Assembly (NCBI GenBank): GCA_965116025.1
Contig: OZ220480.1
Span: 1,792,001 to 1,856,000 of the forward strand
Length of the DNA: 64,000 nt
DNA from: an uncultured candidatus Porisulfidus sp.
GTDB lineage: Bacteria > Pseudomonadota > Gammaproteobacteria > Poriferisulfidales > Poriferisulfidaceae
Direction of reading: 5' to 3'
Made by a program: the position numbers and the translations under genes. The notes beneath the pieces were generated by a model. That model had not been told where the DNA came from, made no database searches, and was given only the letters and a program-made list of their open reading frames with translations. Shown here piece after piece: positions 13,214-19,155 of the stretch (the first letter of the stretch is position 1; each line of letters opens with the position of its first letter).

Positions 13214-14145
13214 GATTCTTTCTGATCCAGACGGAATCCCGCCCGCAGGGTCTGGTTGACCTCCCGCAACGCCTCCAAGACCTGCCGGGACCGCTCGGTT
13301 TGCTCTCGCCAGTCGTGGCGCGTGGCGTCGAGATGCGGAGTCAGGCGGTCCTGGACTTCCGCCAGAGCGGTAGCCACGCCATGCAGGTCTTTCAGCCGAA
13401 GCGCCAGGGTCTGGGTCAGGTTTCCGCCTTCCTGCGTGAGCGACGGCATGATCCGGCGAAGGGTCAGCAACTCGATTCGCTGACACACGCTGGATTGGCT
13501 GGCCACCAATCGAGAGAAAATGAGGGCGAGCGCCAAGTAGGCCGCGATGGCCGTCATCGTCGTGGAGAGCGCCGTCGCCATCCCGCGAACCACCATGGTG
13601 ATTCCCCCTCCACCCTGCGGGAGCGACAACAGGTCAGTGGCTCCAACTAAAGCCAGGGACAGCGACGCGACCGTGCCGAACACGCCCAGCAGGATTAGTA
13701 GACTCTGGATCAAGCGAACCAAGCCGAGACGAGCCACCTCTTGATTTAGCAAAATGGCCGACAGGATCGCTTGCTGGGGGCGCTCCAGCTCCGAGCGGCT
13801 TTGCTGCAGAACGCGGTAGCGCTGCACGATCAAGGATCCCGACAGATTCTCGATGCCCGCCTCGGTCAGTCCGAAGTCCAGCTGCTCCTCGAACTGGTCA
13901 GTGGATCGATTCTCGCGAAAGTAGGCGAAAAGCAGATAGAAGCTTCGGGCCAGCGCGACCAGGAACATCGCCGCGATGATGCCGTTGACGATCATGCCGA
14001 GCCGCGTCGCCATGGCGCCCCAGTAGATCTCCGTCAGCACGTCCGCCTGCCACAACAGCAGGGCGGCGAACAAGATCAGCGCGACTCCCGCCTGCAACAC
14101 CATGCGCCCGGGGCGGCTCTTGAATAATTCCTGGATCATGGGCAA
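13210..14145 (-). CDS. MotA/TolQ/ExbB proton channel family protein
   Basis: LLILLGVFGTVASL and GMATALSTTMTAI channel helices; two N-terminal TMs. Start may be ATG 14139. Confidence 0.82.
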   Translation of the reverse strand: MPMIQELFKSRPGRMVLQAGVALILFAALLLWQADVLTEIYWGAMATRLGMIVNGIIAAMFLVALARSFYLLFAYFRENRSTDQFEEQLDFGLTEAGIENLSGSLIVQRYRVLQQSRSELERPQQAILSAILLNQEVARLGLVRLIQSLLILLGVFGTVASLSLALVGATDLLSLPQGGGGITMVVRGMATALSTTMTAIAAYLALALIFSRLVASQSSVCQRIELLTLRRIMPSLTQEGGNLTQTLALRLKDLHGVATALAEVQDRLTPHLDATRHDWREQTERSRQVLEALREVNQTLRAGFRLDQKES

Positions 14146-14231
14146 TGAGGTGGCCGCTTCCTAAGTTTGCTCTCACGGAGCAGGAAAGTGTAGCAGAGTC
14201 AAGAACCTGTCGGATTCGCTACTCCAATTCG

Positions 14232-14534
14232 TGGTGCGGGCGGAGGGATTCGAACCCCCACGGGCAAAGCCCAGCGGATTTTCGCACCAGCTACGGCTTT
14301 CGCCGCCGCCGCTCGCGCGGCGTTTGTGGTCCGGACTATCCCTTCGCCCTAGCGATTCCCGCCGTAGGCGCCGCCCGTCTAGTCTCTACACCTTCCCGGA
14401 AGCGAGTTCCAGGCTTGGCTCGGGATCGCCATTTCACAGGGTTCCCCGAATTTGAGCGGTTCTGCATCCCCGGTTTCCCGAGGAGCACTCAATGGCCTCA
14501 AGTCCGCAGCGTCTACCTGTTCCGCCACGCCCGC
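14232..14534 (-). tRNA. leuZ: tRNA-Leu(UAA), split by a group I intron (exon 1 14534-14500, exon 2 14282-14232)
   Basis: Acceptor stem GCGGGCG/CGCCCGC plus ACCA; spliced anticodon arm GCGGA-CUUAAAA-UCCGC; long variable arm; GGTTCGAATCC T-loop; third gene of the glyW-cysT-leuZ cluster. Confidence 0.95.
14283..14499 (-). ncRNA. Group I self-splicing intron (IC3-like), 217 nt, no ORF
   Basis: Inserted after U34. Exon ACUU pairs with IGS GAGU giving the U.G wobble; core CAAAUUCGGGGAA, CCCGAGCCAAG, GAAGGUGUAGAGACUAGACGG; P7 GACUA/UAGUC; P3 CCGCUC/GGGCGG; terminal G. Confidence 0.93.
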
Positions 14535-14614
14535 GCACCACGCCTATCATAGTGCAATCGAGATATTCCCGACTGGCCAAACAGCGGCGATGACCAGTGA
14601 GAACACCGTCGCGC

Positions 14615-14764
14615 TCACTCCCGATTCCCTCGCGAGAACCAGCCAGCTATCGCCACTATGAGGTAAATGAGCGCGAAATAAAAAACCACGCCCATTGCCG
14701 CCACGCCCAACACGCTGTAGAGCAGAAACTCCTCAAACTCGATACTCGCTAGCAGCTCATTCAT
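14615..14764 (-). CDS. Small 49-aa single-TM hypothetical protein inside the tRNA cluster
   Basis: MNELLASIEFEEFLLYSVLGVAAMGVVFYFALIYLIVAIAGWFSRGNRE; GAGG upstream; below ORF-track cutoff. Confidence 0.5.
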   Translation of the reverse strand: MNELLASIEFEEFLLYSVLGVAAMGVVFYFALIYLIVAIAGWFSRGNRE

Positions 14765-14973
14765 TGCCTGTCGCCTCGCTCAAGTCAATCGATGATAGCC
14801 ATCACTAAGCGAACCGCGAGATAAAAGAAACCCGCCAACCCTGCCAACCAGGAACATTTCGCTGCCGCTCATTTGGACATCGCGAACAGCGCGATAGCTT
14901 CAATCACCAAAATTCAAAGCTACGCTCCACCGCCCACATCTCTCGCGCCGCCATGATCCTTCGGGCTTTGATC

Positions 14974-15047
14974 TGGAGGCTGAGGTCGGAATCGAACCGG
15001 CGTCCACGGCTTTGCAGGCCGCTGCATAACCACTCTGCCACTCAGCC
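14974..15047 (-). tRNA. cysT: tRNA-Cys(GCA)
   Basis: GGCTGAG/CTCAGCC acceptor stem, U discriminator, CCA, loop CUGCAAA; 74 nt. Confidence 0.96.
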
Positions 15048-15084
15048 CATGTCGTCACGGCCCAACCTGGATCGCGTCGGGAAC

Positions 15085-15160
15085 TGGAGCGGGAAACCGG
15101 ATTCGAACCGGCGACCTTAACCTTGGCAAGGTTACGCTCTACCAACTGAGCTATTCCCGC
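15085..15160 (-). tRNA. glyW: tRNA-Gly(GCC)
   Basis: GCGGGAATAGCTCAGTTGGTAGAGC...TTGCCAA...GGTTCGAATCC...TTCCCGCTCCA; 76 nt. Confidence 0.97.
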
Positions 15161-15174
15161 CCCGCGAAAGCAAA

Positions 15175-15203
15175 ATTGTCGCACCCCTGCCCGAGGCTGT
15201 CAA
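15175..15203 (-). promoter_or_regulatory. Sigma70 promoter of the tRNA operon
   Basis: TTGACA-17 nt-GACAAT with TG extension, 14 nt upstream of tRNA-Gly. Confidence 0.7.

Positions 15204-19060: not shown

Positions 19061-19155
<95 letters not shown>

Follow-up and report, generated by a model that had tools for sequence, protein, structure and literature searches.

The stretch of DNA analysed here (the window, 64,000 nt) raises the question whether a leucine tRNA gene that standard searches pass over is interrupted in its anticodon by a group I intron able to splice, and how unusual such an intron is in the bacterium that carries it. A sequence-only reading had proposed an intron of 217 nt between U34 and A35 of a gammaproteobacterial tRNA-Leu(UAA), and had regarded it as rare in Proteobacteria. 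The structural part of that proposal held up in the analyses below, while the part concerning rarity did not.

Location and detection of the split tRNA-Leu(UAA) gene

Read on the minus strand, the anticodon loop of the gene is broken after C-U-U and picks up again with A-A-A-A-U-C-C. The coordinates, the length of 217 nt and the insertion point between U34 and A35 proposed earlier proved exact on this strand. The parts of the gene are listed below; position i of the intron corresponds to window position 14500-i.

14232..14534, minus strand: whole split tRNA-Leu(UAA) gene, pre-tRNA of 303 nt with CCA encoded (ARAGORN -i; alignment with 14 same-genus copies; tRNA stems paired in 100% of cells)
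14500..14534, minus strand: 5' exon, 35 nt, ending in ..GGACUU, with the acceptor 5' strand, D arm, 5' strand of the anticodon stem, a base tentatively numbered C32, U33 and U34 (ARAGORN -i, sequence)
14283..14499, minus strand: group I intron, 217 nt, starting with GAGGCC and ending in ..GGUGCG (RF00028, ARAGORN -i, RNAalifold, covariation)
14232..14282, minus strand: 3' exon, starting with AAAAUCCGC, with A35, A36, A37, A38, the 3' strand of the anticodon stem, long variable arm, T arm, acceptor 3' strand and ACCA (ARAGORN -i, alignment)

When introns were allowed (option -i), ARAGORN agreed with this partition and called a tRNA-Leu(taa) of 86 nt, not counting the 217-nt intron, with the junction 'gactt-Intron-aaaat'. 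The insertion thus lies between anticodon positions 34 and 35 of a tRNA-Leu(UAA), CUU/...g/AAAA, which is the position that defines the class Leu.3Ug. The last four bases of the 5' exon, ACUU, are at the same time the exon strand of P1.

Default ARAGORN called no tRNA at 14232..14534, neither in the scan of the window nor in that of the whole genome, and Rfam at gathering thresholds reported nothing there, its hits in the window being limited to three plain tRNA genes. The expectation that standard annotators would miss this tRNA was therefore correct. With permissive thresholds, RF00028 matched minus-strand positions 14509..14316 along the entire model (1-253), with 34.3 bits and E 4.7e-7 on 601 nt. 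The proposed covariance-model check gave a match, with a score below the gathering score of 50. No other RF00028 match was found in the 2.02-Mb genome at E<=1, and the insert is unique in the genome. The Rfam group I seed contains no bacterial sequence, and a cut-off of 18-20 bits was used in a published survey (Williams 2020, bioRxiv 10.1101/2020.01.27.920355). ARAGORN -i also named 9 further 'intron' tRNAs in the genome, none of which coincides with an RF00028 match; this mode is prone to ghosts (Williams 2020). The full-model match, taken with the complete helix set given in the next section, supports the assignment of the insert as a group I intron in tRNA-Leu(UAA).

The intron is compact, GC-rich and ORF-less, in line with its earlier description as a minimal ribozyme. 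With 217 nt it is too short for a homing endonuclease, and Pfam gave no match for either of the two mechanical ORFs overlapping it, one of 135 aa (plus strand) and one of 50 aa (minus strand), so the reported lack of such a gene stands. The longer ORF (14145..14552, plus strand) runs antisense over the entire split tRNA gene and is probably spurious. Since both default tRNA finders and the Rfam gathering score miss the tRNA gene, automatic annotation would report no decoder for UUA in genomes such as this one, and might call the 135-aa antisense ORF instead.

Intron anatomy and conservation of the fold

The helices were assigned by RNAalifold, by covariation and by the RF00028 match. All features lie on the minus strand.

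14487..14503: P1, exon A-C-U-U (A32 to U35 in gene numbering) and intron G1 and A2 paired with intron 8-13, the internal guide (RNAalifold unaided; covariation)
14467..14484: P2, hairpin of 7 bp with GAAA tetraloop, intron 16-22 with 27-33 (compensated pairs 2/7 in the genus, 7/7 over 67 family rows)
14454..14459: P3 5' strand, intron 41-46 with 124-129, partner 14371..14376 (100% paired in the genus, one UA to CG change)
14371..14376: P3 3' strand (RF00028 match, covariation)
14390..14449: P4-P5-P6-P6a domain (P4 and P6 invariant in the genus; P6a compensated in 5/7 pairs in the genus, 7/7 in the family)
Intron 51-56 with 75-80: P4 (invariant in the genus)
Intron 60-61 with 70-71: P5, short (RNAalifold)
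Intron 81-82 with 109-110: P6; intron 87-93 with 99-105: P6a (covariation for P6a)
14380..14386 and 14333..14338: P7, 5' and 3' strands, intron 114 and 116-120 with 162-167 (six pairs, invariant in 15/15)
14345..14370: P8, intron 130-155, with internal loop CCUACG ... CUAGGG (RNAalifold, covariation)
14286..14330: P9.0, 3 bp, intron 170-172 with 212-214, enclosing P9 and P9a (RNAalifold, covariation)
Intron 178-183 with 188-193: P9, 6 bp, GCGA loop (5/6 pairs compensated)
Intron 194-198 with 203-207: P9a, hairpin of 5 bp, GAAA loop (invariant in the genus; 4/5 pairs compensated in the family)
14283: terminal G (omega G) before the 3' splice site, intron 217 (invariant column G252 in 15/15 genus sequences)
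14375..14395: 21-nt stretch, intron 105-125, comprising the end of P6, J6/7, the P7 5' strand, J7/3 and the start of the P3 3' strand (invariant in 15/15 genus sequences)

The fold was tested on an alignment (A1) of 15 rows, the window copy plus 14 same-genus copies. The tested structure included the tRNA stems, P1 to P9a and P7 as a pseudoknot, comprising 88 pairs and 1320 cells. Standard pairs occupied 99.4% of the cells, and 21 of the 88 pairs had changed on both sides within the genus. None of 500 shuffles reached any of the five measures, and when the 3' partners were slid by 1-3 columns, pairing fell to 36-47% of cells, which places the structure far beyond chance. Individual helices were paired in 97-100% of their cells. 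Compensatory changes within the genus were carried by P2, P3, P6a, P8 and P9, while P4, P5, P6, P7 and P9a are invariant there and hence speak neither for nor against pairing. From the alignment alone, RNAalifold recovered P1, P2, P3, P4, P5, P6a, P8, P9.0, P9 and P9a; the pseudoknot is not drawable by this program, and the tRNA part was misfolded.

Over 67 distinct rows of the wider family (see below), compensation was seen in P2, P3, P6a, P8, P9 and P9a. In this set, 99.8-100% of the cells of P3, P4, P5, P6 and P7 are paired; the invariance of P7 in it is partly forced by the search pattern with which the sequences were collected. For P3 the value is 99.8%, with 4/6 pairs compensated.

At the 5' splice site, P1 contains the U.G wobble pair (U35.G10, i.e., 14500 with 14490) in 15/15 sequences; the helix is 100% paired, and its outer pair shows one compensatory change in the genus alignment. 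P7, the putative guanosine-binding helix, has a fitting sequence, with a G.C pair, a bulged A (14385, intron 115) and then G-A-C-U-A paired with U-A-G-U-C; it crosses P3 as a pseudoknot, and being invariant it yields no covariation signal. The terminal G is present not only throughout the genus but also in 53/53 family introns with the same junction among the matches listed. Thus the gene has all four elements named by the sequence-only reading (P1 U.G pair, P3, P7 and terminal G), and in 15/15 genus sequences every one of them is either invariant or compensated. In these alignments the conserved core P3-P8 is complete, including the P4-P6 domain and the pseudoknot of P3 and P7. The internal loop of P8 presumably resembles a tetraloop receptor, by comparison with the Azoarcus architecture.

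Distribution within the genus and the order

Full-length matches were found in 14 of the 15 other genomes of the same genus, with 80-94% identity; the single genome without a match is 76% complete. In all 14, ARAGORN -i called a split tRNA-Leu(taa) with an intron of 215-225 nt. The novelty of the intron had been expected to drop if it proved widespread in related genomes, and its presence in 14/15 of them has that effect.

Outside the genus the picture was different. None of 25 genomes from other families of the order matched the intron, their matches being limited to tRNA bits of 28-37 nt. The surroundings of tRNA-Gly and tRNA-Cys were taken from 15 of these genomes; an uninterrupted tRNA-Leu(taa) was found downstream of tRNA-Cys in 9 of the 15 loci, and in the remaining 6 the fetched stretch contained no tRNA-Leu. 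Within the order, the intron was found only in the genus of the window.

A quick maximum likelihood tree was built from 68 Leu(UAA) introns. In it, one group (15 rows, SH-aLRT 97) comprised locus L097 and all genus copies but one, 14 of 15, the exception being genome G004, which the tree did not place. The deeper branches were mostly unsupported. Class labels clustered beyond what was seen in shuffles, and Gammaproteobacteria did not form one group. The history is most simply read as a single gain at the base of the genus, with vertical inheritance from then on; loss of the intron in the sister families is a possible alternative. The essential single-copy tRNA with a ribozyme in one genus, set against the uninterrupted syntenic gene in sister families, offers a clean natural comparison, useful both for dating the gain and for work on the persistence of such introns where genomes are reduced.

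The intron at L097, a locus titled 'uncultured candidatus Porisulfidus sp.', is 88% identical to that of the window, and one same-genus genome has an identical copy of it. In a passage of PMC9123188, Candidatus Porisulfidus serves as the outgroup for SUP05, a gammaproteobacterial clade. Through this match, the gammaproteobacterial host assumed by the sequence-only reading is supported indirectly.

Distribution in other bacteria

One genome per species, 185,579 species in all, was scanned for the motif GAGACTARACGG followed after 20-50 nt by ATAGTC, which gave at least 120 loci. Among the matches listed, 54 were called by ARAGORN -i as tRNA-Leu(taa) with the anticodon in the normal position, and 53 of these share the junction ACUU/...G/AAAAUC, L070 being the exception. 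The other matches listed, out of the at least 120, comprised one odd taa call, 14 tRNA(cat), 17 of Ser, Arg and Phe types, a few others, and 14 with no call. The 53 same-junction loci among the matches listed have mostly proteobacterial or acidobacterial titles, many of them Alphaproteobacteria, and include Burkholderia, Paraburkholderia, Acidobacteriota, Binatia and a Saprospiraceae bin. Gammaproteobacteria are represented among them by Halioglobus (L086), Carnimonas (L090), Microbulbifer (L119) and 'candidatus Porisulfidus' (L097). No cyanobacterial title occurs among the 53 same-junction loci listed; the sole cyanobacterial title among the matches listed, L035, belongs to an Arg(CCU) gene. 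Identity to the intron of the window reaches up to 83% among the matches listed, in Halioglobus (L086) and in an alphaproteobacterial bin (L129).

An even sample of 400 genomes from the class of the window gave a second estimate. Sixteen of these matched the intron at E<=1e-5, including the window genome itself and one congener, which leaves 14/398 for the others. Loci were obtained for 10 of these 14, and they comprised six Leu(taa) genes split at the same site, two Leu(caa), one Leu(cag) and one something else. The proposed rarity in Proteobacteria is contradicted both by this sample and by the at least 53 same-junction tRNA-Leu(UAA) loci, mostly proteobacterial or acidobacterial. Outside cyanobacteria, introns of this class can be called neither rare nor new. 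A published survey mapped 5292 tRNA genes split by group I introns in 80,413 bacterial genomes; it counts Leu.3Ug among four classical classes and adds 72 further Leu.3Cg introns, all of them in Proteobacteria (Williams 2020).

Two side observations were made on host genes. Related introns were seen in tRNA-Leu(caa) and tRNA-Leu(cag) at L145, L146 and L148, all from the same class as the window, and the caa cases may correspond to the C(-1) type 'Leu.3Cg', which has been flagged as requiring a splicing test (Williams 2020). In addition, the same core was found in tRNAs read as Ser(aga/gga), Phe(aaa/gaa), Thr(ggt), Arg(tct/cct) and Cys(aca) at L024, L050, L054, L056, L062 and others; some of the anticodon calls aga, aaa and aca at such loci look like misplaced splice sites and not like real anticodons.

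Relation to known introns

Bacterial tRNA-Leu(UAA) introns at CUU/AAAA have classically been described in cyanobacteria and plastids. The window intron is like the Leu.3Ug class in its host tRNA, its insertion point, the U at -1 in a U.G pair, the terminal G, the lack of an ORF and a length in the range of ~200-250 nt. Its junction is shared by at least 53 non-cyanobacterial examples. It differs in that this copy is restricted, within its order, to one gammaproteobacterial genus. A tRNA-Leu(UAA) intron at the same site, of ~231 nt and with the P8 motif CCUACG...UAUGG, was reportedly described by Vepritskiy and co-workers in a deep-subsurface gamma-proteobacterium (J Bacteriol, 2002); the window intron has CCUACG...CUAGGG in P8. 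A term search of PMC3984707 found no passage on tRNA-Leu or Proteobacteria with the terms used.

The 21-nt stretch at 14375..14395 had been taken for a link to the compact Azoarcus tRNA-Ile ribozyme. Among the matches listed it occurs, regardless of the host tRNA, in 96 of the at least 120 loci, and its last 17 nt occur in 114, counts which are biased upward since the search pattern fixes 12 bases of this stretch. The betaproteobacterial tRNA(cat) introns among the matches listed have the 21-mer in 7/14 cases and the 17-mer in 12/14. A special tie to Azoarcus is not borne out by these counts; going by its distribution, the stretch is a hallmark of the whole intron family. A full-text literature search with the 17-nt core motif found no paper, and the motif is absent from the text of PMC2241849.

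According to a passage of PMC13168695, the Azoarcus pre-tRNA intron has 205 nt, comprises P2-P9 and P9.0, and self-splices efficiently in vitro without protein. The window intron is like it, as far as that passage goes, in having a compact core P2-P9 with P9.0 and no P5abc-type extension. Its helix inventory, P1-P9, P9.0 and a short P9a, fits the compact layout quoted for Azoarcus, which makes the intron a candidate for subgroup IC3 (no P2.1, no P5abc, short P9 region). The Azoarcus intron class is that of the betaproteobacterial tRNA(CAU) introns, called Met(cat) by ARAGORN, and the 17-nt core is shared with the window intron in 12 of the 14 listed. Unlike the Azoarcus intron, that of the window has a different host tRNA and position in the anticodon loop, and carries an extra invariant GAAA hairpin (P9a) after P9.

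Transcription of the locus

Two plain tRNA genes lie upstream of the split gene, and a promoter-like site precedes both.

15175..15203, minus strand: promoter-like site, TTGACA, 17 nt, TG-GACAAT, ~15 nt upstream of tRNA-Gly (consensus match in 10/12 positions)
14974..15160, minus strand: tRNA-Gly(GCC), 15160..15085, and tRNA-Cys(GCA), 15047..14974, on the same strand as tRNA-Leu (default ARAGORN, Rfam)

Two promoter-like sites were found versus 0.3 expected, and none of them in the 439-nt spacer between tRNA-Cys and tRNA-Leu. The tRNA-Leu gene is therefore probably co-transcribed with tRNA-Gly and tRNA-Cys, and 15175..15203 is the likely start of a predicted Gly-Cys-Leu transcript. Of 14 genus loci, 12 have retained the order Gly-Cys-Leu(UAA), which occurs also in sister families and in the E. 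coli cluster glyW-cysT-leuZ.

The spacer itself (14535-14973) is variable. It measures 439 nt here versus 28-37 nt in 11 same-genus genomes, and 643 and 1264 nt in two others, while in one genome the genes are ~14 kb apart. We considered a repeat or mobile element as its source and rejected this, the spacer being unique in the genome and giving no Rfam match at E<=0.1. It contains an ORF at about 14767..14621 (minus strand) for a hydrophobic peptide of 48 aa with no Pfam or Rfam match.

UUA decoding, splicing and alternative explanations

The genome, that of a marine bacterium, is small and consists of one contig of 2.02 Mb, is 99.39% complete, has 62.7% GC and holds 46 tRNAs. Its tRNA-Leu set, determined by ARAGORN in default mode and with -i over the whole genome, comprises CAA, CAG, GAG, TAG and the single split UAA gene. 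The proposed search for a second tRNA-Leu(UAA) in this complete genome, with both modes, returned none. UUA occurs 958 times in 977 long ORFs, a frequency of 1.88 per 1000 codons (1.9% of Leu codons), and is present in 471/977 of them; the counts were taken from non-overlapping mechanical ORFs of at least 250 aa, which may include spurious frames. Under standard decoding, a CAA anticodon does not read UUA. With UUA in use and a sole tRNA-Leu(UAA) to read it, the cell should need the spliced product, which supports the earlier suggestion that UUA decoding may depend on the intron-bearing tRNA.

We consider it about 90% probable that the insert is an ORF-less group I intron of 217 nt from the bacterial tRNA (IC3-like) family, residing in the sole tRNA-Leu(UAA), transcribed with Gly and Cys, self-splicing and vertically inherited. 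The tRNA-Leu gene would probably be transcribed together with the upstream tRNA-Gly and tRNA-Cys. In the transcript, the intron would fold into its P3-P9 core, with P1 bringing its U.G pair to the 5' splice junction, as in established group I chemistry. A free guanosine held in P7 would attack after U34. The terminal G would next occupy the guanosine site, and the freed 3'-OH of U34 would attack before A35, so that the anticodon loop CUUAAAA and a normal class II tRNA of 86 nt would be restored. Without splicing, the cell would have no UUA reader. The intron would have entered the ancestor of the genus, or survived only there, and been inherited vertically since then under selection for its fold. 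It is a well-preserved and very probably active member of a widespread bacterial tRNA intron family. It is new only as an instance in the genus of the window, and leaves the general knowledge of group I introns unchanged.

Public RNA runs were searched for the locus. None contained more than 0.06 of the sampled words. In runs X1, X3, X6 and X9 no joint from 14500 to 14282 was seen, and the RNA runs showed only short conserved tRNA pieces of other organisms, a result that speaks neither for nor against splicing. Sequencing run X9 contains the stretch without differences. A joint in X9 from 14263 to 14500, with 19 other letters between, was considered as a spliced form and rejected, as it is the tRNA of another organism.

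Among the alternatives, it is improbable that the intron is real but does not splice autonomously in the cell, needing a protein helper or being limited by conditions, and in this way controls the supply of tRNA-Leu(UAA). Such a gate would act widely, since UUA is rare among Leu codons yet present in about half of the long ORFs, and the intron has been kept in 14/15 reduced genomes (1.4-2.0 Mb), where loss of useless DNA would be expected. Against this, the core is complete and the loops L2, L9 and L9a are GNRA tetraloops, which probably provide the contacts that make small tRNA introns self-sufficient, while the close Azoarcus-type intron self-splices efficiently without protein, according to the same passage of PMC13168695. 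In addition, no conserved protein gene was found next to the intron locus, the Pfam matches of the neighbours being weak or unrelated.

There is a slim chance that the intron gates the sole UUA reader in a regulatory sense, with maturation of tRNA-Leu(UAA) tracking guanosine nucleotide, Mg2+ or growth state and so tuning UUA-containing genes. If this were true, translation of about half of the long genes would be tuned, in a ribozyme-based analogue of bldA-type control, and the retention of the intron in 14/15 genomes of a streamlined symbiont lineage would be explained.

A decayed, inactive relic, with the tRNA-Leu(UAA) a pseudogene and UUA read otherwise or not at all, is very unlikely. The Rfam score below gathering would suit it, but the helices are kept with compensatory change across 15 genomes differing by up to 20%, the strands of the catalytic core do not vary, the exons are flawless, and no other tRNA-Leu(UAA) exists for the 958 UUA codons used. 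The notion of two tRNA halves flanking an unrelated GC-rich insert, e.g., a small mobile element, could appeal to the sub-threshold Rfam score only and has next to no probability, as the insert is found once in the genome, is matched by the group I model end to end, and has up to 83% identity to same-site tRNA-Leu(UAA) inserts in other classes and phyla among the matches listed, so that the RF00028 match, the covariation and the same-junction family copies rule it out. The self-splicing intron in the sole tRNA-Leu(UAA) thus remains the preferred reading.

Other tRNA genes of the genome

Two further observations concern the tRNA set as a whole. Firstly, there are two tRNA-Ser(gga) genes, at 19061-19151 (plus strand) of the window and at G000:C1:1277846-1277937, while elsewhere there is nearly one gene per anticodon. 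Secondly, outside the window, at G000:C1:257954-258049, ARAGORN reported a 'tRNA-???' of 96 nt for which the anticodon was called with four bases (cggg).
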